From contig CAYTEO010000004.1 in NCBI GenBank assembly GCA_964436825.1, positions 113,738-127,781 on the forward strand: a DNA stretch of 14,044 bases, written 5' to 3'. Origin of the DNA: an uncultured Fibrobacteraceae bacterium (GTDB lineage Bacteria; Krumholzibacteriota; Krumholzibacteriia; LZORAL124-64-63). Shown here in pieces: positions 2,215 to 13,660 of the stretch (position 1 is its first letter; every line of letters begins with the position of its first letter). A program made the translations under genes and the position numbers. The notes beneath the pieces were generated by a model. The model had not been told where the DNA came from. It did not search any database and saw nothing but the letters and a program-made list of their open reading frames with translations.

Positions 2215-2956
2215 TGGCGGTCGTCTCCTCGGCGATGGTCTCCAGGGGAACGCCGCGCAGGTCGGCCAGCGCGGCGGCCACCTCCCGCACGTGCCGCGGC
2301 TCGGTCTCCCGCGGCGCAACGCCCTCCAGGCCGATGGAGGGGGCGTCGGTCTCCAGCACGATCCTGTCCAGGGGCGCAACCTGGGCGCTGCGCCGCGGCC
2401 GGCGGGCCCGCGGCCTGGTGATCGCCCCCCCGAACCCCAGGTGCAGCCCCAGGTCGAGGAAGCGTCGCATCAGCTCCGGACCGCGGCTGAAGGCGTGGAC
2501 GACACCCTGCACCGGCGCCAGCGGCGCCAGCAGTTCCAGCAGCTCCGCGAAGGCTCCGCGAACGTGCAGGACGACCGGCAGGTCCAGCTCCCGCGCCACG
2601 GCCAGCTGGACCTCCAGGACCGGCGTCTGGACGGCCAGCGGTGGATGGTCCACCTTCCCGTCCAGCCCGATCTCGCCCACGGCCACCGCGTTGCTCTCGC
2701 GCAGGGCACGGCGCAACCGGTCGGCCAGTGCCTGCGGGTCCGGGGCCTGGTCGGCCACCCACGGGTGGAGCCCCAGGCAGGGGTGGACATCCGGGTGCGC
2801 TGTCGCCAGGTCGCGGATGGCGCCCCAGGATCCCAGGTCGTACGCCGGCACGACGCAGCCGCTCACCTCCGCGGCGGTGGCCCGTGCCAGCACCCCCGGC
2901 ACGTCGTCGCCCAGGGGGGGCATGTCCAGGTGGGCGTGACTGTCGATCAGTCGCAC
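2186..2956 (-). CDS. TatD-family metal-dependent hydrolase/DNase
   Basis: N-terminal VRLIDSHAHLDM (TatD/YcfH signature), then GLHPW, AVGEIGLD, VVLHVRGA, HAFSG-like and LETDAP motifs. The track ORF (2186..3379) has a 141-codon out-of-context N-terminal extension running through the MBL gene, so I trimmed it to the GTG at 2956. This start overlaps the upstream MBL gene stop by 10 nt, which suggests translational coupling. Confidence 0.85.
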   Translation of the reverse strand: MRLIDSHAHLDMPPLGDDVPGVLARATAAEVSGCVVPAYDLGSWGAIRDLATAHPDVHPCLGLHPWVADQAPDPQALADRLRRALRESNAVAVGEIGLDGKVDHPPLAVQTPVLEVQLAVARELDLPVVLHVRGAFAELLELLAPLAPVQGVVHAFSRGPELMRRFLDLGLHLGFGGAITRPRARRPRRSAQVAPLDRIVLETDAPSIGLEGVAPRETEPRHVREVAAALADLRGVPLETIAEETTANARCLFRLP

Positions 2957-3750
2957 ATCGCCCTCCCGGAGACCGTGGATTCCTCCAGGATGACGGTGGG
3001 AGTGTCCTGTCTGGCCACCAGCCAGCGCACTCCGGCCGGGTCGCCGGCCGCCTCCCGGACGTCGGCAAGGGCCAGTTCCGGTTCGTTGTTCTGCTCGCTG
3101 AGATGTCCCAGGACCACGATCCGCAGCCGGGACGAGTGCCGCCTGGCCGTCGCCACCAGCTCGCCGCACTGGCGGTTGCTCAGATGGCCGCGCGGGCCGG
3201 CGATGCGGTGTTTCAGGAAGGCGGGGTAGGGACCGTCTCGCAGCAGGACAGGATCGTGGTTGGCCTCGACGTACAGGACGTCCAGGCCGGACAGCGACGC
3301 GGTGGGCAGGCCGTCCACCGTCCCCAGGTCGGTCAGCAACAGCAGGCTCAGGTCCGGCCCGTCCAGGCGGAAGGCGCACGGTTCCGCAGCGTCATGGGAG
3401 GTGGGGATCGCGGTGATGCGCATCCCGGCCAGCGCGAACGGTCGCAACGGGGCCACCAGCCGGGCGGCGGGCAGTTGCGCCAGTCCGCTGTGGCGAGCCG
3501 TCCCGGCGGTCATCATGACCGGCACTCCGAGGCTCGCGGACAGCCGGGCGGCACCGCGCACGTGATCGGTGTGTTCGTGGGTCAGCAGGAGGGCTTCGAT
3601 GCCCCGGGGATCGATGCGGGCCTCCGCCAGCCTGCGCAGGGTCTCGCGACGGGAGAGGCCGCAGTCGACCAGCACGCCCCGGCCGCCGCGCAGCACGCAG
3701 GTGGCGTTGCCCCTGCTGCCACTGGCCAGGTTCACGATGCGCGTGGGCAC
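2947..3750 (-). CDS. MBL-fold metallo-hydrolase, YycJ/WalJ-like
   Basis: N-terminus IVNLASGSRGNATCV...LVDCGLS, HxHxDH motif (LTHEHTDHVRG), then a downstream His and Asp pattern, all collinear with Bacillus YycJ. GTG start at 3750 is preceded by GGAGGAG with a 7-nt spacer. Stop is TGA at 2949-2947. Confidence 0.8.
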   Translation of the reverse strand: MPTRIVNLASGSRGNATCVLRGGRGVLVDCGLSRRETLRRLAEARIDPRGIEALLLTHEHTDHVRGAARLSASLGVPVMMTAGTARHSGLAQLPAARLVAPLRPFALAGMRITAIPTSHDAAEPCAFRLDGPDLSLLLLTDLGTVDGLPTASLSGLDVLYVEANHDPVLLRDGPYPAFLKHRIAGPRGHLSNRQCGELVATARRHSSRLRIVVLGHLSEQNNEPELALADVREAAGDPAGVRWLVARQDTPTVILEESTVSGRAMCD

Positions 3751-3793
3751 TCCGTCTCCTCCCCCCGGGCGCCGGCAGGGCAGCCAGGGCGGT

Positions 3794-4687
3794 TCAGGGC
3801 CGCTTGCCCTCCAGGAAGAACACCTCGAAGACCTTCTCGTGGAAGATCGGCCCGTGGCCGAAGTAGCCGTCCTCCCCGAACAGCTCGCCGTGGTCGGACA
3901 TGATCATCAGCCAGGTGTTGCGGGGACACTTCTCCAGCAGCTCGCCGACGACGCGGTCCAGGTGTTCGACGCAGGCGATCTGCTTCTCGTAGAACGCCTT
4001 GAACTGCTGCGGGGTGAAGAACTCGTCCTGCTTGCGGTCCTGCAGGAACTCCGACGGATTCTTCAGGAAGTCGTCCAGGTGCTTGAAGACGCCGTGGACG
4101 CCGCTGATGTGGGGCAGGTCGTCGGCCGTCTCCCCGGGCAGGAGGTACGGGTAGTGGGTCTCGCCGGTGTTGATGAAGAAGAACGACGGGCGGTCGTCCC
4201 GGAACTCGAGCCGCTGGACGATGGCCCGCAGGTCGTTGTGGCTCGGCGCCAGCTCGTAGCGGTCGAAGTGCTGGCTCAAGGTGGTCATCGGGTTCAGCAC
4301 CGGCAGGCTGACCCAGCCCTCGCACCAGTAGCCCTGCTGCTTCAGGAAGTAGGGGAGCGACAGCTCGGGGACGAACTTCCTGAACTCCACGTCCGGCATG
4401 TTGATCCGCGTTCCCCAGGTGATGAACTCCTCCCGGTAGACCTCGGAGGCGAAGACCCCCCGGGGACTGGCGTGGGGGACCATGCCCATCAGGAAGGTGT
4501 AGTGGCTCGGACTGGTCCAGCTGGCGTAGCTGTAGCGGCGCTCCGCGACGCCGATGCGGTCCAGGTTGGGGGTCCGGGCCGCCTGGAAGGCATCCCAGCG
4601 ACAGCTGTCGAAGACGATCAGGACGATGTTGTTCAGCTTGTCGCCACCGGTGAGCTTGTCCTTCAGCTTGTCGATCAGGCCGGCCAT
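3794..4687 (-). CDS. Alkaline-phosphatase-superfamily metalloenzyme, type I phosphodiesterase / nucleotide pyrophosphatase (NPP)-like
   Basis: The protein contains NIVLIVFDSCRWD, which resembles the NPP LxxDGxRxD metal-site motif. It also has SWTSPSHYTFLMGM (compare NPP TxPNHYTIVTG, the Thr nucleophile region) and a C-terminal MSDHGELFGEDGYFGHG (compare SDHGM...GxHGY). I trimmed the track ORF (to 4762) to the ATG at 4687-4685, which is preceded by AGGGAG with a 5-nt spacer. The gene is about 10 points lower in GC than its neighbours by eye, and the protein is unusually rich in F, K, Y and N. Confidence 0.6.
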   Translation of the reverse strand: MAGLIDKLKDKLTGGDKLNNIVLIVFDSCRWDAFQAARTPNLDRIGVAERRYSYASWTSPSHYTFLMGMVPHASPRGVFASEVYREEFITWGTRINMPDVEFRKFVPELSLPYFLKQQGYWCEGWVSLPVLNPMTTLSQHFDRYELAPSHNDLRAIVQRLEFRDDRPSFFFINTGETHYPYLLPGETADDLPHISGVHGVFKHLDDFLKNPSEFLQDRKQDEFFTPQQFKAFYEKQIACVEHLDRVVGELLEKCPRNTWLMIMSDHGELFGEDGYFGHGPIFHEKVFEVFFLEGKRP

Positions 4688-4717: not shown

Positions 4718-4746
4718 ATTATCGGTCCTGTGGTCGGCGGCGGCAA
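4718..4746 (-). promoter_or_regulatory. sigma-70-like promoter for the AP-superfamily gene (-35 TTGCCG, 17-nt spacer, -10 GATAAT)
   Basis: On the minus strand TTGCCG (4746-4741) and GATAAT (4723-4718) are separated by 17 nt, about 30 nt upstream of the ATG at 4687. This is a sequence match only. Confidence 0.3.
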
Positions 4747-4759
4747 GTGTCGCGGACGT

Positions 4760-4788
4760 CACCGGCGGCCCGCTGGGGGCCGCCGGTG
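4760..4788 (-). terminator. GC-rich stem-loop downstream of trxA (12-bp stem, 5-nt loop, no U-tract)
   Basis: The perfect inverted repeat CCGGCGGCCC (4762-4771) and GGGCCGCCGG (4777-4786) can be extended by 2 bp on each side. It lies 30 nt after the trxA stop. It is not followed by a T-run on the minus strand, so it may be a non-canonical terminator or a processing or attenuation structure. Confidence 0.3.
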
Positions 4789-4816: not shown

Positions 4817-5140
4817 TCAGAGGGCGGCGTCGATGGCCGCGGCCAGGTCCTCCTTGGGGCGGACGCCGACCAGCGAATTGACGGCCTGGCCGCCCTTGAA
4901 GATCATGACCGTCGGGATGCCGCGGATTCCGTAGCGCATGGCCAGGTCCTGGTTGTCGTCGACGTTGACCTTCACGACCTTGATCTTGTCGCCGTACTGC
5001 TGGGCCAGCTCGTCGATGATCGGGGCGATCATCCGGCACGGCCCGCACCACGGGGCCCAGAAGTCGACGACGACCGGCACGGGGCTCTGCAGGACCTCGG
5101 GCTCGAAGGTGGCGGTATCGACTGCCAGTGCGTTGCTCAT
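4817..5140 (-). CDS. trxA: Thioredoxin
   Basis: 107 aa with the canonical WCGPC active site. Full-length similarity to TrxA ([24 protein letters not shown]...). ATG at 5140 with AAGGAGA 6 nt upstream. Confidence 0.95.
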
Positions 5141-5195
5141 GAGAGTCTCCTTCTGTTTCGATGAAGCAGGTTGCTCGCTCGCTCATGCCCAGCAG

Positions 5196-5212
5196 AGCAG
5201 GGAGCGTGCCAG
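5196..5212 (-). promoter_or_regulatory. sigma-54 (RpoN) -24/-12 promoter upstream of trxA
   Basis: The minus strand reads CTGGCACG-CTCC-CTGCT. Against the consensus TGGCACG-N4-TTGCW this scores 7/7 at -24 and 4/5 at -12, with correct GG-N10-GC spacing. The -12 GC is about 57 nt upstream of the trxA ATG. Confidence 0.5.
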
Positions 5213-5296
5213 GATCGTCGTGATGCATCCTTGGTCGTAACCGGTTGAATCATCTGTCGATACATCCCTGGAAGCGAACAACCGGGAACAAGATAT

Positions 5297-5320
5297 GTTG
5301 CATTGCAACGTTGTTGTTGC
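5297..5320. promoter_or_regulatory. Overlapping dyad-symmetric elements (putative enhancer-binding-protein site / UAS)
   Basis: GTTGCA-T-TGCAAC is a perfect 6+6 inverted repeat at 5297-5309. It overlaps a second dyad, GCAAC-N6-GTTGC (5305-5320). The pair sits about 95 bp upstream of the sigma-54 -24 element and about 45 bp upstream of the divergent EBP start codon. Confidence 0.4.
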
Positions 5321-5331
5321 TACGATATTGT
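5303..5331 (+). promoter_or_regulatory. Possible sigma-70-like promoter of the EBP gene (-35 TTGCAA, 17-nt spacer, -10 TATTGT)
   Basis: The -35 hexamer lies inside the palindrome, which would allow autoregulation. The -10 TATTGT at 5326-5331 is about 24 nt before the ATG. The GAGGTGA Shine-Dalgarno is at 5345-5351. This is a weak sequence-only call. Confidence 0.25.
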
Positions 5332-5354
5332 TTCAATCAACATCGAGGTGAGCG

Positions 5355-6731
5355 ATGCCCCCAGCCCTGACGGAATTCTGTCGCTGCCATCCCGGGAGCG
5401 TCGTCCGGATCCTGGACGCCCTGCAGGAGATGGTCCTGGTCGCCGGGCCCGACCTGCGCCTCTCGGCCATCAACGAGGCTGCCGCCCACTTCCTGGGAGT
5501 CCGCCGCGAGGAGGTGCTGGGACAGCCCCTCTGCGACCTGTTCGCCGAGGACGCCTGTCCCGTGGACTGCCTGGGCGAGACCCTCCGGACGGGGCGTCCC
5601 ATCGTCGACTACCAGACCGACGTCGCCCTGCCGGACGGCCGCCGCTTCGACATCCTCGTGCGGACCGTGCCCCTCGAACCGGCGGAACCGGACGTCGGTG
5701 CGGGCGCCGCCCTCATCCTGCGCGACGTCACCGAGGTGACGAGCCTGCGCAAGGAGATCAGCGGCCGGACCCTATTTGCCGGGATCGTCGGCAAGAGTCG
5801 CCGGATGCAGGAGCTGTACACCCTGATCGAGGACGTGGCACCGACCGAGGCGACGGTCCTGATCCGGGGCGAAACCGGGACGGGGAAGGAGCTGGTGGCC
5901 CGGGCCATCCACCGCCACAGCCGGCGCAGCGAGGGGCCGTTCGTCACGGTCAACTGCTCGGCCCTGTCGGAGACCCTGCTGGAGAGCGAGCTGTTCGGGC
6001 ACGTCCGCGGCGCTTTCACCGGGGCGGTCGCCGACCGGCGGGGCCGTTTCGAGGAGGCCCGCGGAGGTACCCTCTTCCTGGACGAGATCGGGGACGTCAG
6101 TCCCGTCGTCCAGGTCAAGCTGCTGCGGGTCCTGCAGGAGCGGGTCATCGAGCGGGTGGGGGACAACACGCCCCGGCCGGTGGACGTGCGGATCATCACG
6201 GCCACGAACCGCGACCTGGAGGAGCTGGTGGCCATCGGCCGGATCCGGCGCGACTTCTACTACCGGATCAAGGTGGTCGTCCTGGAGCTGCCGCCGCTGC
6301 GGGAACGGCGCGAGGACATCCCCCTGCTGCTGGAACACCTCCTGCGGCGCCACGGGCGCACCGTGGAGGATGTGGCGCCCGAGACGCTCCGCCTGCTGAT
6401 GGACCACGACTGGCCCGGCAACATCCGGGAGCTGGAGAACGCCATCGAGCACGCCGTCGTCCTGAGCCGGGGCGGTCCCATCGAGCCGCGCCACCTGCCG
6501 CCGGAGATCGTTCGGGCCGTCCCAGTCGGGGGCGGGCGGCCGGTCGCCTCGCGCCGCGCACCCCTGGAGCGGGAGACGATCCTGGCGGCCCTGGAGCGCC
6601 AGCACTGGCACCGGGGCCGGACGGCACGGGAGCTGGGGATCGACAGGACGACCCTGTGGCGCAGGATGCGGGAATACGGTCTGCTGGACGACCGCCACCG
6701 GCGGGGAAGGGAGGGCGGCGATGGGCGGTAG
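5355..6731 (+). CDS. sigma-54-dependent transcriptional activator (PAS sensor - AAA+ sigma-54 interaction domain - Fis-type HTH), no receiver domain
   Basis: N-terminal PAS-like region (about residues 10-130). Walker A GETGTGKE, the sigma-54 contact motif GAFTGA, Walker B LFLDEIGD and the arginine finger region. C-terminal HTH ([21 protein letters not shown]). ATG at 5355 is preceded by GAGGTGA. Stop is TAG at 6729-6731. Confidence 0.9.
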
Positions 6732-7509
6732 GGGCGGAGGCTGGATCCTGGGCTGCGGGATCGGCTGCGGGGTGCTGATCCTGGTCGGGATGCTGGTCGT
6801 CGGCGGCGTCTTCCTGGCGGGGAAGAAGACGGCTCGGCACTTCGCCAGGGCCGTCGCCCTGGAGGACAGCCTCATGGCTAGATGCGGTCGGCCCGAGGAC
6901 TACGTCCCGCCGCCGGACGGCCGGATTCCCCCCGAGAGGCTGGCCCTCTTCCTGGCCGTGCGGGACAGCGTCGTCGAAGCGGAGCGGGACTTCCTGGCCG
7001 AGGTCGAGTCCCTGGACGGCGCCGGTGGCGGGATCGGCCGGTTCCTGAAGGCGTTGCGCCACGGCGTGGGGTCGCTCTCCCGGCTCGGCGAGGTGATCGA
7101 CCGGCGTGACCGGGCCCTGCTGGCGGTGGGGATGAACCCGGGTGAATACGCCTGGTGGACGGTGATGATCTATCACTGCTGGCTGGGCCAGCCGCTCCGT
7201 CCGCCGGAGCTGGCCGACCGGGAGCACTTCCACCTGGAACTCGGCGAGCAGGAACTGGTCAGGGTGATCCGTTCGCGGTTCGTGGCGCAGGTCGACAGTG
7301 CCATGGCCGCGGGGGAGACCCAGGAGTGGCTGGCCCAGCTGGCCGCCGAGTCGCGACGGCTGATCCGGGAGCCGGGGCGGCTTCCCTGGGAGGACGGACT
7401 CCCCCGGCGCACTCTCCTCTCCCTGGCCGGCAGGCGGGAGGAGCTGGAGGCCAGGGGCACTCCCGCAGCCTGTCTGCTGGTGGGGACGACACTGGGGAAG
7501 GACGACTAG
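6721..7509 (+). CDS. Hypothetical membrane-anchored protein (one N-terminal TM helix plus a roughly 220-aa soluble domain), translationally coupled to the EBP
   Basis: The ATG at 6721 overlaps the EBP stop by 11 nt (ATGGGCGGTAG). The hydrophobic segment [27 protein letters not shown] is followed by KK (positive-inside). GC3 usage is high and coding-like throughout. I recognise no domain. Confidence 0.6.
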
Positions 7510-10702: not shown

Positions 10703-12040
10703 TCAGGAGGCGGCGTGGACCGGGGCCCGTTGCGGGGCCTGCTGCTCGCCGCCGAAGCGGATCCCGATCCCGTGCAGCAGGGCGAAGGGCGGGATCCCGC
10801 CGATCAGGACCAGGACGTTGTCCGCCGGCACGACGACCCCACCGCCGGGGGTGGCCAGGGCGACGCTGGTGGGGGTGATCTCCTGGACGGTCGATTCGGG
10901 CAGGAACGTGATCCTTCCGTCCGCGATGGCGCGCTCGATGCGCTCGGCGTTGCGCTTCTTGACGCGCAGGAAGGCCGGCTTGCGGTAGGAGAGGGTGACC
11001 CGGGTCCCGGCCTGGGCCGACAGGCCCAGGGCGGCCTCGACGGCGCTGTCCCCGCCACCGACCACCAGGACGCGCCGGTCGCGATAGGCGGCGGCGTCGA
11101 TCAGCTTGTAGGTGACGTGGGGCAGTTCCTCGCCCGGCACGTCCAGCCTGCGCGGCGTACCGCGCCGTCCCAGGGCCAGCACGACCCGCCGTCCCCGGAA
11201 CCGCTCGCCGCTCTCGGTTTCCACCGTGAAGTCGCCACGCTGCCCGGTGACGCCGGTGACCCGCAGGGGGTGGCGGATATCCAGGCCGAAGTCGCGGTGC
11301 AGTCGCCGCCAGATCTCCAGTAACTCCTCCTTGCTGTACTCCTCGCGGTCGAGGGTCCCGAAGCAGGGAATGGTCACCGGCTGGACCATGACGAGCTTGT
11401 GCCGGGGATACTGCAGGATCGTCCCGCCTGGTCCCTGCTGGTCCAGGACGATGCAGCGCAGGCCCTCGCGGGAGGCGGTCAGCGCCGCGCTCATGCCGGC
11501 CGGCCCGGCCCCGACGATCACCACGTCCCACAGGTCCGGCTCCCGCGACCGCTCCGGGTCCCGCGCGATGGCCCCGGCAACGCGCTCTCCCTGCCGGATG
11601 GCGTTGCTGATCAGGGCGAAGCCGCTCAGTTCGCCGCAGATGTAGATGCCGGGGACGCTGGTCTGCTGGTCCTCGTCGAGCAGGGGGATGTCATCGCGGG
11701 TCCGGATGTCGCCCAGACCGATCCTGATGGCACCGACCGGACACGCCTCGGCGCACTTGCCGTGGCCGATGCAACGGGCCCCGTTGATGACGACCGCCCG
11801 CCCGGAGACGATCCCCAGCACGTCCCCCTCGGGACAGGCCGCCACGCAGGTCCCGCAGCCGATGCAGGCGTTGGCGTCGACCAGGGGATACTGGCCCAGC
11901 GGCTTGTCCAGGCCGAGGGCCGCCGACTCCCGCCGGCGGAGGGCCGCCTCCCGGCGATCGCGGCGAAAGCGGATCAGGTACGGGACCAGGGTCCCGGCCC
12001 CGATCGCCAGCGCTCCCAGCCAGATCAGCAGCGATTCCAC
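10703..12040 (-). CDS. Membrane-anchored fusion of a 2x[4Fe-4S] ferredoxin domain to a thioredoxin-reductase-type FAD/NAD(P)-binding oxidoreductase (ferredoxin:NAD(P)+ reductase-like, no redox-active CxxC)
   Basis: N-terminal TM helix (LLIWLGALAIGAGTLVPYLI, then RFRRDRR). Two cluster motifs, CIGCGTCVAACP and CIGHGKCAEACP; the second has His in place of the second Cys. FAD GxGxxG motif (VVIVGAGPAGMSAA), second dinucleotide motif (VLVVGGGDSAVEAA), and no CxxC between them, which matches TrxR-like ferredoxin:NADP+ reductases of the YumC type. GTG start at 12040, 15 nt after the outer-membrane-protein stop. Confidence 0.75.
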   Translation of the reverse strand: MESLLIWLGALAIGAGTLVPYLIRFRRDRREAALRRRESAALGLDKPLGQYPLVDANACIGCGTCVAACPEGDVLGIVSGRAVVINGARCIGHGKCAEACPVGAIRIGLGDIRTRDDIPLLDEDQQTSVPGIYICGELSGFALISNAIRQGERVAGAIARDPERSREPDLWDVVIVGAGPAGMSAALTASREGLRCIVLDQQGPGGTILQYPRHKLVMVQPVTIPCFGTLDREEYSKEELLEIWRRLHRDFGLDIRHPLRVTGVTGQRGDFTVETESGERFRGRRVVLALGRRGTPRRLDVPGEELPHVTYKLIDAAAYRDRRVLVVGGGDSAVEAALGLSAQAGTRVTLSYRKPAFLRVKKRNAERIERAIADGRITFLPESTVQEITPTSVALATPGGGVVVPADNVLVLIGGIPPFALLHGIGIRFGGEQQAPQRAPVHAAS

Positions 12041-12055
12041 GGTGCACCGTCCCTG

Positions 12056-13660
12056 TCAGAAGCGATAGGCCAGTCCGGTCCGCAGGGACAACCCCTCCAT
12101 GCTGTCTCCCCGGTCGTACTCCACCTCGGTCCGGACGTCGAGGCCACCGGGCAGCGGCCGCCACCATCCCGCCCGCAGCCACCGGTCCCTTCGCGTCAGC
12201 CCCGACGTCCGGTAGGCGTAGCGGCCGGCGGCCAGTTCCAGGCGGTCGCCGCGGTCGGTGGCCAGCTCCAGGGAGAGGGACGGGTGCCAGCCCGAGACCA
12301 GCTCCCCGTCGAACCCGCTGACCGAGAGCCGCAGTCGGGTCCGTGCCCCAAGCAGACCGCGCCGGGTCCAGGAGAGGCGGTAGGAGAGGGTCCGGTCCCG
12401 TCCCCGGCGGAAGTCGCGCACGCCGCCGTCGGCGGACAGCGAGGAACGGTTTCCCCGCCAGGCGAACCCCAGCCGCGCTCCCCGGCGTCTGGAGTTGTCG
12501 AACAGGCTGTCGGCCAGGCTGCGGGTCTCCCAGGTGCGCGGCAGGTGCCGGTCGTCGTAGGCCAGGTGCCAGCGCCAGCTGGCGGTCGGGCGGTATCCCA
12601 GCCGCAGCCAGAGGTTGTTGATCCGCAGACGGTCGCGGGCAACCCCCATGCGCCAGCCCCGGTTCATGTCGATCTCCACGGTCTGGTCCAGGGACCAGCG
12701 CCGCGGCCCGCGCCAGTGGAACCCCAGCAGGGCGTACTCGCGGCTGATCTCGCCGCGGTGGTACTGGCCGATGCCGGCGCAGTCCAGGCGCCAGCGTCCC
12801 CCGCCGAGCCGTCCGGCGCCGGCCAGCAGCCCGCCCAGCTTCAGGTCGTCCGTGCGCGGTGCGGACGTGCGCCAGTCGGGCTGGAAACCGGCGAACAGGC
12901 CGATGCGCAGCGACCGGTAGAAGGGAATGCTCGTCACCGCACCGTCGAGGTAGCCCACACCGGGCACCGAGCGCGGGATGAACCGGCCCAACCGCCAGTG
13001 CCAGCGCACGTCGGGATCCTCCCGGTAGAGGGAGCAGGCGGTGACCCGGTTGACCCACTCGGTCGCAGGGGCCGTGGCCAGGTCCCGCCGGCGGGCGATC
13101 CGGCGCAGGGAGCCTCGTACCTCCAGGTCCGGGCCCCGGTCACTGTCGTGGCGCAACCGGAAGCGGACGGTCGTCCGTGTGGCGTCCAGGTCCGAGACGG
13201 TGCGATCGTCGGTGTGGTCCCAGTCCAGGGAGAGCCCTCCCCGCCAGGACGACGGCCGGCGGGAGGCCTCCCGCTCCGGCGCGGGCGCCGGCGACGGCAC
13301 CGGTCGGCGCCGCGCCGGTGGCGATGCGGCGACGGCCGTTGCGGTCGAGTCGGCTGCGTCGGCAGCGGCCTGGATGGGGACGGCCCGGTCGCCGGGCCGG
13401 ATCCTCCCGGAGGCGGACTCGACGCGGCAGGAGGCCGAATGGGTCGCCACGTGCTCCACCGTCACCACGGCCACCTGCCGCTCGCCGCGGTGGATGGCGA
13501 AGCGGTCGCCGGGCCGGATCCCCTCCCCGCGCCCACCATCGAGGTAGACGTGGTCGGCGGAGACGTACCGGACGTGCTGGACCACCGGGACAGCCGCCGC
13601 GGCCAGCGGCAGCACCAGGACCAGCAGGCCGAGACGGGACGACAGGTTCCGCCTTCTCAT
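12056..13660 (-). CDS. Predicted outer-membrane beta-barrel protein with an N-terminal small beta-domain and a Pro/Ala linker
   Basis: Signal peptide MRRRNLSSRLGLLVLVLPLAAAAVP. An approximately 70-aa domain carries a duplicated G(R)IRPGDR motif. A Pro/Ala/Ser-rich linker follows. The remaining roughly 380 aa have alternating hydrophobic and aromatic residues and abundant W, Y and R, and end in LAYRF (a C-terminal Phe, the beta-barrel assembly signature). The ATG at 13660 shares its A with the cytochrome's TGA stop (TGATG). Confidence 0.55.
   Translation of the reverse strand: MRRRNLSSRLGLLVLVLPLAAAAVPVVQHVRYVSADHVYLDGGRGEGIRPGDRFAIHRGERQVAVVTVEHVATHSASCRVESASGRIRPGDRAVPIQAAADAADSTATAVAASPPARRRPVPSPAPAPEREASRRPSSWRGGLSLDWDHTDDRTVSDLDATRTTVRFRLRHDSDRGPDLEVRGSLRRIARRRDLATAPATEWVNRVTACSLYREDPDVRWHWRLGRFIPRSVPGVGYLDGAVTSIPFYRSLRIGLFAGFQPDWRTSAPRTDDLKLGGLLAGAGRLGGGRWRLDCAGIGQYHRGEISREYALLGFHWRGPRRWSLDQTVEIDMNRGWRMGVARDRLRINNLWLRLGYRPTASWRWHLAYDDRHLPRTWETRSLADSLFDNSRRRGARLGFAWRGNRSSLSADGGVRDFRRGRDRTLSYRLSWTRRGLLGARTRLRLSVSGFDGELVSGWHPSLSLELATDRGDRLELAAGRYAYRTSGLTRRDRWLRAGWWRPLPGGLDVRTEVEYDRGDSMEGLSLRTGLAYRF

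Follow-up and report, generated by a model that had tools for sequence, protein, structure and literature searches.

A predicted one-gene sigma-54 circuit for thioredoxin, with an adjacent PAS-type activator and three putative enhancer sites, in Krumholzibacteriia

OrpR (DVU2106) of Desulfovibrio vulgaris Hildenborough is a sigma-54 activator that consists of PAS, AAA+ and Fis-type helix–turn–helix (HTH) domains without a receiver domain. It controls a tiny local regulon, namely the orp (Nitro_FeMo-Co/ORP) genes, from sigma-54 promoters located beside its own gene. Redox sensing by OrpR needs residues C52, C61 and C65 of its PAS domain, which bind a [4Fe-4S] cluster (PMC8359166), and the oxidized PAS domain inhibits the AAA+ domain (PMC8359166; PMC3897727). 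The OrpR binding site overlaps the sigma-70 promoter of OrpR itself, and integration host factor (IHF) is also required (PMC8359166; PMC3897727). Other stress-sensing sigma-54 activators that lack a receiver domain are NorR of Escherichia coli, which acts on norVW, and PexR of Myxococcus xanthus, which acts on ahpC/katB (PMC12754779). In both cases an N-terminal sensor holds the protein inactive (PMC12754779; PMC2831303), and each protein binds three sites upstream, next to the detoxification or antioxidant gene that it regulates; PexR is in addition a dual repressor–activator (PMC12754779). In FisR of Cupriavidus, which is also a sigma-54 activator, cysteines of the regulatory domain sense reactive sulfur (PMC12754779). 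The present study concerns a 14,044-nt stretch of Krumholzibacteriia DNA (the window, meaning the whole of this stretch), in which the gene for a PAS-type sigma-54 activator diverges from a thioredoxin gene that is its predicted target.

Thioredoxin is also the target of a dedicated thiol-sensing circuit with an alternative sigma factor, such as the SigR–RsrA–TrxBA system of Streptomyces coelicolor, in which thioredoxin can reduce the sensor and thereby close the loop. Related control of trx genes by alternative sigma factors is exerted by SigB in Bacillus and by SigH in actinobacteria. However, SigR-type circuits use extracytoplasmic function (ECF) or stress sigma factors of the sigma-70 family together with anti-sigma factors, whereas the locus in the window would depend on sigma-54 and an ATP-dependent enhancer-binding protein. 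To our knowledge, thioredoxin genes are served either by housekeeping sigma factors or by stress sigma factors of the sigma-70 family, and we know of no cultured representative of the candidate lineage Krumholzibacteriia. Neither a sigma-54-dependent thioredoxin nor an activator dedicated to one was found in the open literature, including surveys of sigma-54 regulons, a search that left most subscription journals uncovered.

Comparison of the window with orthologous loci makes it likely that the thioredoxin gene is the single target of a local sigma-54 regulon, in which the adjacent activator, bound to an array of upstream sites, drives the thioredoxin promoter. Eight loci were compared, namely the window and seven orthologous loci (L001–L005, L081 and L082). 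L001–L005 were obtained by a scan with the activator as the query, using one genome per species (five loci at 55–64% identity); four of them are annotated as Candidatus Krumholzibacteriia metagenome-assembled genomes (MAGs) and L004 is annotated merely as a bacterium. L081 and L082 are metagenome contigs that were added by a metagenome scan. The window is itself a JGI metagenome contig, and near-identical copies of it are present in two other samples. The divergent arrangement of thioredoxin and activator is kept in all seven orthologous loci, where the thioredoxin is 60–66% identical and the activator is 55–61% identical in a full-length alignment. With its length and its WCGPC active site, which is found in all eight loci, the thioredoxin is of the TrxA type (a fold of about 105–110 amino acids with WCGPC), and it scores 132 bits against TIGR01068, the cut-off of which is 96.8. 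A purine-rich block precedes the thioredoxin ATG in all orthologues. The G+C content, which is 65–75% in the window, is about 53–55% in the 214-bp gap that separates the two genes.

Within this gap, the predicted sigma-54 promoter TGGCACGCTCCCTGCT reads TGGCACG-CTCC-CTGCT on the minus strand from 5211 to 5196. Its only mismatch is a change of T to C preceding the GC, and its GG and GC doublets have the exact 10-nt spacing that the sigma-54 class demands. The GC lies 56 nt from the thioredoxin ATG (5140–5138), and from the usual geometry of sigma-54 promoters the transcript is predicted to start at about 5186 with a leader of about 46 nt. When both strands of the 14 kb were searched with at most one mismatch to TGGCACG-N4-TTGCW, this was the sole match, against 0.09 expected, and 18 of 200 shuffles yielded any match of this quality. 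The intergenic DNA has diverged to a mean column identity of 56% (alignment A1), and the only invariant blocks upstream of the thioredoxin ATG in this alignment are GGCAC and TGC. The pattern [TC]GGCA[CT]-N5-NTGC occurs 56–79 nt ahead of the ATG, on the correct strand, in 8/8 loci. A rough estimate for this pattern is about 0.005 occurrences per 300-bp region on the correct strand, and its retention in every locus therefore indicates selection. A promoter scan of the gap found no sigma-70-like promoter facing thioredoxin, a result of limited weight because the consensus of the phylum is unknown. Furthermore, neither a second sigma-54-like site nor another copy of the enhancer motif was found elsewhere in the window, including before the ferredoxin–flavoprotein gene described below.

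The putative enhancer is an array of three GTTGCA/TGCAAC sites, which stand in register in 8/8 loci when the 70 nt before the activator start are aligned (alignments A2 and A3). The consensus of the array is TGTGGTTTGCAAC-GATATT-GTTGCAAC-GAAAAC-GTTGCATGCAAC, with site centres about 16 bp apart; GTTG and AC in site 2 and the right-hand CAAC in site 1 are among the columns that do not vary (alignment A3). The promoter-proximal site 3 is the perfect dyad GTTGCATTGCAAC, for which an exact match was obtained in 0/200 shuffles and which has GTGGTTTGCAAC-type sites as its aligned counterparts in every orthologue. Site 2, GTTGCTAC, forms together with the right half of site 3 the element GCAAC-N6-GTTGC (5305–5320), which also has no other exact match in the window. 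Site 1, GTTTCAATCAAC, ends 13 nt short of the activator ATG and abuts the ribosome-binding site of the activator. Across the 8/8 loci the array is 92–129 bp from the -24 element; in the window the site centres are 94–126 bp upstream of it, that of the dyad being about 94 bp from the -24 GG. A Fis-type HTH in the regulator and upstream sites about 80–150 bp from the promoter, as expected of an enhancer-binding protein, are thus both found here, the sites being putative. The everted layout TGCAAC-N6-GTTGCA resembles the GGGCG-N7-CGCCC of OrpR (PMC8359166). The spacer between enhancer and promoter comprises 86 bp with 50% G+C in the window and is AT-rich in most orthologues; an IHF-like site within it is a weak possibility, and an AT-rich stretch occupies the corresponding position in the six orthologues of lower G+C content (L002–L005, L081 and L082).

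An earlier note on this DNA had proposed such a promoter, on the minus strand and with its -12 GC about 57 nt from the trxA ATG, and both the site and, within one nucleotide, the distance were borne out. The dyad that it had described, overlapped by GCAAC-N6-GTTGC, is likewise exact and of single occurrence; it had, however, taken the enhancer to be this one dyad, covering two of the sites and missing site 1, and this part of the description gives way to three sites. The conservation in orthologous intergenic regions that the proposal implied was found for the array and the promoter in 7/7 cases, and the divergent PAS activator without a receiver domain was recovered with its domains and motifs, as described next.

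The activator has Pfam matches to PAS, Sigma54_activat (PF00158, 5.6e-71), AAA_lid and HTH_8 (1.5e-14), and the Pfam scan gave no receiver domain. Its AAA+ domain has what a sigma-54 activator is expected to contain, namely Walker A (GETGTGKE) and Walker B (DEIGD) motifs, both intact and conserved, and a GAFTGA loop (residues 219–224), which reads GAYTGA in six orthologues. The AAA+ core resembles activators of solved structure, the match to the ZraR AAA+ domain being at 1e-95. A 10-residue segment of the recognition helix is invariant in all eight loci that have the GTTGCA/TGCAAC motif. Unrelated activators also diverge from thioredoxin-family genes with near-consensus sigma-54 promoters in two MAG loci, L032 (Desulfohalobiaceae; 3316–4001) and L074 (Spirochaetales; 3103–4001), where the repeated palindromic half-sites are AACGTTAC and TTAACGTTAA and the recognition helices differ as well. 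Because half-sites and helices co-vary between these two loci and the eight loci, the comparison supports the adjacent activator as the protein that binds the array. The pairing of an activator with a sigma-54-driven thioredoxin may therefore have evolved more than once and may represent a recurrent, undescribed theme.

Over its full length the activator is 40–50% identical to a large family in Desulfobacterota, Planctomycetota and other phyla. The PAS domain contains C-x7-8-C-x3-C in 71 of 99 family members, at least 27 of which adjoin Nitro_FeMo-Co (ORP-type) genes. The locus shares with OrpR the domain organization and, as predicted here, the tiny local regulon with a sigma-54 promoter beside the regulator gene and the palindromic sites that overlap the promoter of the regulator. 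However, the predicted target is thioredoxin instead of the orp genes, the sites are of the GTTGCA/TGCAAC type instead of the GGGCGYRTTTTGCGCCC that goes with the orp operon, and three sites serve one promoter, whereas OrpR has one site per promoter. The recognition helix differs from the GIDPSTLYRK type, the loop is GAFTGA or GAYTGA and not the GAFTDA of OrpR, and the lineage is Krumholzibacteriia. Since the neighbour is thioredoxin and the motif is different, whereas the wider family stands beside Nitro_FeMo-Co genes, the activator is placed in a putative sister group of OrpR and is not regarded as its orthologue, the published cysteine spacing and the ORP-type neighbours being the basis of this assignment. 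As a separate observation, activators with C-x8-C-x3-C beside Nitro_FeMo-Co genes were also encountered beyond Desulfobacterota (L006–L050 and L083–L125; for example L014 3447–3839, L010 3316–3759 and L095 1397–1978), the MAGs concerned being labelled Planctomycetota, Hydrogenedentota, Nitrospirota or Acidobacteriota, among others.

The three upstream sites beside an antioxidant-type gene recall NorR and PexR. Unlike the activator of the window with its cysteine-bearing PAS domain, however, these proteins sense through a GAF domain that holds a mononuclear Fe/Zn centre; their targets are nitric oxide reductase or peroxiredoxin and catalase, and there is no close sequence kinship outside the AAA+ core. 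FisR, as far as its description goes, differs in its regulatory domain and in its targets, which are sulfide oxidation genes.

The PAS cysteines of OrpR form the series C52-x8-C61-x3-C65 with D/E54, whereas those of the window form C60-x7-C68-x3-C72 with D61 and D71. The PAS residues that are invariant in the eight orthologues are C60, C68, P69 and D71 only. The complete C-x7-C-x3-C with D71 is present in the window and in L001, while the other six orthologues, which lack the third cysteine, retain C60, C68 and D71; D61 is found in the window only, L001 having Ala at that position. On the strength of these residues, a cysteine-based redox sensor is the somewhat favoured assignment for the PAS domain, and we infer that its ligand is either a putative Fe–S cluster or a C60–C68 dithiol/disulfide. 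That oxidation turns the thioredoxin gene on and that it turns the gene off are about equally likely. For a thioredoxin, induction by oxidants would be the more sensible response, whereas OrpR goes off on oxidation.

Several observations weigh against a regulon in which the array-bound activator drives thioredoxin through this promoter and senses redox through its PAS domain. With two mismatches allowed, the sigma-54 pattern is no rarer than chance in the window, and the core GGCAC-N6-TGC is found once where 1.0 is expected; taken by itself, the lone promoter-like site is suggestive and not significant. The case for the promoter draws on conservation across loci that are related and hence not fully independent. 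The binding unit is ambiguous, in that the array accommodates both a reading as three compact dyads and one as two everted TGCAAC-N6-GTTGCA dyads, and a match to the IHF consensus with at most one mismatch occurs in just 3/8 loci. In the sensor, the third OrpR-type cysteine (C72) is confined to the window and L001, and the first PAS cysteine is displaced by one residue relative to OrpR; an Fe–S cluster is therefore not assured. The hairpin that follows thioredoxin in the window (4760–4788) has no U-tract, so that read-through to the next gene is possible. In addition, rpoN was not found in the few extra kilobases of longer contigs that carry the same genes (about 16–18 kb readable), in which multihaem cytochromes and an OPT transporter are encoded; for the presence of sigma-54 itself, the conserved and intact activator is the sole support, and an indirect one.

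The behaviour of the looser site definitions, together with the 0.09 one-mismatch sites expected in 14 kb, would agree with a -24/-12 match that is accidental or non-functional, the thioredoxin being transcribed from a housekeeping-sigma promoter and the activator controlling something else; such a promoter might indeed be overlooked by a sigma-70 scan when the consensus of the phylum is unknown. This explanation is nevertheless extremely unlikely, since the GG-N10-GC, its strand and its distance from the ATG are kept in 8/8 loci amid diverged flanks, at a chance rate for the pattern as low as that estimated above, since the intergenic scan gave no sigma-70-like site toward thioredoxin and since the window offers the activator no other sigma-54-like site or motif copy. 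It is also conceivable, although improbable, that the promoter is real but is driven by another activator, the array merely being an operator through which the neighbouring gene represses itself. The position of the array, on the ribosome-binding site and promoter region of the activator and 13 nt from its ATG, suits autoregulation. However, in every locus the array lies about as far upstream of the -24 element as enhancers usually do, and thioredoxin and activator have stayed paired in 7/7 orthologues at 55–61% protein identity. Furthermore, OrpR activates and autorepresses from one site set (PMC3897727), and activators usually adjoin their targets (PMC8359166).

Little credence can be given to the proposal that a different factor, such as an unrelated redox repressor, binds the array, or that the array works as a hairpin in DNA or RNA and not as an enhancer, although a scan labelled the dyad as a terminator-like stem and the protein partner of the array is a prediction. 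Both flanking genes point away from the array, so that no transcript ends there; the substitutions among the loci keep the identity of the half-sites and not the pairing of a stem; and no Rfam family was matched. For these reasons, the dyad was rejected as a terminator or structured RNA. The everted 5/6-N6-5/6 dyads resemble sites of Fis-type HTH proteins, for which OrpR provides an example (PMC8359166), and the motif changes along with the recognition helix in L032 and L074, which argues for the adjacent activator as the array-binding protein.

The sigma-54 unit is most likely the thioredoxin gene alone, as judged from what follows this gene in the window and in the orthologous loci. A strong GC hairpin is found after thioredoxin in all six orthologues with sequence there and is followed by a U-tract in five, and sequences similar to the promoter of the next gene, of the form TTGCC(G)...GAnAnT, recur in the orthologous spacers. 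This next gene encodes a protein of the alkaline-phosphatase superfamily and is present after thioredoxin in 6/7 orthologous loci, L005 ending just past thioredoxin; at 72–81% identity it exceeds both thioredoxin and activator. The earlier note had suggested that the circuit might extend to the downstream hydrolase genes. Because of the hairpin after thioredoxin and the sigma-70-like promoter of the next gene itself, these genes probably lie outside the unit, and their inclusion was rejected as the likely case; those for the metallo-β-lactamase (MBL)-fold hydrolase, the TatD-family hydrolase and the ThiF-type protein are, moreover, not syntenic with thioredoxin in the orthologues. They belong to a run of four genes on the minus strand downstream of the alkaline-phosphatase-like gene (10–1413, 1468–2214, 2186–2945 and 2947–3750), the members of which encode an MBL-fold hydrolase, a TatD-family hydrolase, a TcdA/ThiF-type adenylyltransferase and a KamA-family radical SAM aminomutase-like protein. 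Overlaps between adjacent genes suggest that this run is an operon.

On the other side of the gap, no activator promoter exceeded the threshold of the promoter scan. In the window and in five orthologues the array contains the hexamer GATATT, GATAAT or a variant differing by one or two bases (GATACT or GTTATT), which occupies a different inter-site spacer in the window than in the orthologues; as a sigma-70-type -10 element of the activator, the hexamer is tentative. Since site 1 abuts the ribosome-binding site of the activator and such a hexamer lies within the array, the promoter of the activator is predicted to overlap the array, and the activator probably represses its own sigma-70-type transcription. 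The gene that follows the activator is probably co-transcribed with it. Its product is a 262-amino-acid single-pass membrane protein with GCGIGC where the membrane helix begins, for which no Pfam or NCBIfam match was found. By tblastn, a homologue was detected after the activator in 5/7 orthologous loci, and the protein may be one that partners or modulates the regulator. Distant homologues (28–31% identity) occur in unrelated contexts without a link to activators, and the membrane protein is therefore probably not an obligate partner. The coordinates of all of these features are collected in Table 1.

Table 1. Features of the thioredoxin–activator locus, in window coordinates
Feature	Position	Strand	Remarks
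Alkaline-phosphatase/sulfatase-superfamily hydrolase gene	3794–4687	-	Weak STM4013-family hydrolase match; FDSCR motif
Sigma-70-like promoter of next gene, TTGCCG-17-GATAAT	4718–4746	-	Promoter scan; unit boundary
12-bp GC hairpin directly after thioredoxin stop codon	4760–4788	-	Likely end of sigma-54 transcript
Thioredoxin gene, predicted regulated target	4817–5140	-	107 amino acids, WCGPC active site; Pfam PF00085 4e-35
Shine–Dalgarno AGGAG of thioredoxin gene	5147–5151	-	Read from sequence
Predicted sigma-54 promoter TGGCACGCTCCCTGCT	5196–5211	-	-24 GG 5210–5209, -12 GC 5198–5197
Possible bend/IHF-like site ATTCAACCGGTTA	5238–5250	-	One mismatch to WATCAANNNNTTR; weak
Enhancer site 3, promoter-proximal, perfect dyad GTTGCATTGCAAC	5297–5309	.	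Unique in window; putative
Enhancer site 2 GTTGCTAC	5316–5323	.	GTTGCAAC in 5/7 orthologues; putative
GATATT, candidate sigma-70-type -10 hexamer of activator	5324–5329	+	Embedded in array; tentative
Enhancer site 1 GTTTCAATCAAC	5330–5341	.	Aligned with GTTGCATGCAAC-type sites; putative
Sigma-54 enhancer-binding protein (activator) gene	5355–6731	+	458 amino acids; PAS 16–127, AAA+ 144–310, HTH_8 402–441
Membrane-protein gene downstream of activator	6721–7509	+	Overlaps activator stop codon by 11 nt

Some further observations concern the thioredoxin leader and more distant genes. Folding of the leader (window 5138–5186, minus strand) shows a hairpin, as it does in all eight loci with different stem sequences; these hairpins lie about 18–40 nt past the predicted start, and several leaders hold a GTTGCA/ATCAAC-like word. 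The z-scores range from +0.5 (window) to -3.3 (L082), and RNAalifold returned no pairs on a MAFFT alignment of the leaders; given these mixed results, a conserved leader hairpin is not claimed. At 10703–12040 on the minus strand, 5.5 kb from thioredoxin, a gene encodes a 445-amino-acid protein in which a membrane helix at the N terminus is combined with a two-[4Fe-4S] ferredoxin domain and a YpdA/TrxR-like flavoprotein domain that lacks a CxxC motif. This protein is a putative, unusual ferredoxin-fused low-molecular-weight-thiol or disulfide reductase. In L166, a longer contig from the same population, a 534-amino-acid protein of unknown function (window 12056–13660) is followed, shortly past the right-hand end of the window, by two large proteins (14066–16797) that match multihaem cytochrome c3/c7 faintly.

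The promoter, the three sites, the domains of the activator, its invariant cysteines and the hairpin after thioredoxin are seen in the comparative analysis; from them we infer a course of events that includes binding, looping, hexamer assembly, autorepression and the nature of the signal. Sigma-54 RNA polymerase would reside in a closed complex on TGGCACG-N4-CTGCT (5196–5211, minus strand) before the thioredoxin gene, and the PAS/AAA+/HTH activator would occupy the three GTTGCA/TGCAAC sites at 5297–5341. As with NorR and PexR, three dimer sites may seed the assembly of one hexamer, which would contact the polymerase via a DNA loop over the 86-bp spacer and open the promoter by ATP hydrolysis. 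The transcript would probably be monocistronic and end at the hairpin at 4760–4788, while the array-bound activator, like OrpR, would probably also repress its own sigma-70-type transcription. The PAS domain (C60, C68, D71 and C72) would most likely read the redox state via an Fe–S cluster or the C60–C68 dithiol/disulfide, and the state of this sensor would gate the AAA+ domain. Feedback of thioredoxin on the PAS sensor is put forward as a hypothesis. In its fullest form, this scheme is a self-contained thiol-redox homeostat: in an oxidizing cytoplasm the PAS cysteines C60 and C68 (with D71 and C72) would form a disulfide or lose an Fe–S cluster and thereby free the AAA+ domain, and thioredoxin, once induced, would reduce the sensor again and end the response. 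This form is doubtful; if true, it would be a counterpart of SigR–RsrA–Trx or OxyR–Grx based on sigma-54 and an enhancer-binding protein.

What is new here is the target gene, the DNA motif and the lineage, whereas the combination of a sensor/AAA+/HTH protein with three sites, a sigma-54 promoter and a local target is already known from NorR and PexR and from OrpR; the architecture is textbook and the advance is incremental, not conceptual. If the one-target regulon is confirmed, thioredoxin would be added to the few redox defences under sigma-54 control, namely norVW (NorR), ahpC/katB (PexR) and orp (OrpR), and it would follow that a cysteine PAS sensor of the OrpR type has been rewired, outside Desulfobacterota, to serve another target through another DNA motif. 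Krumholzibacteriia would thereby gain a compact regulatory module: about 2 kb long and made up of a single promoter and a single gene, it would lend itself to tests in a heterologous host and might act as a redox-responsive switch with tight control of the off state.

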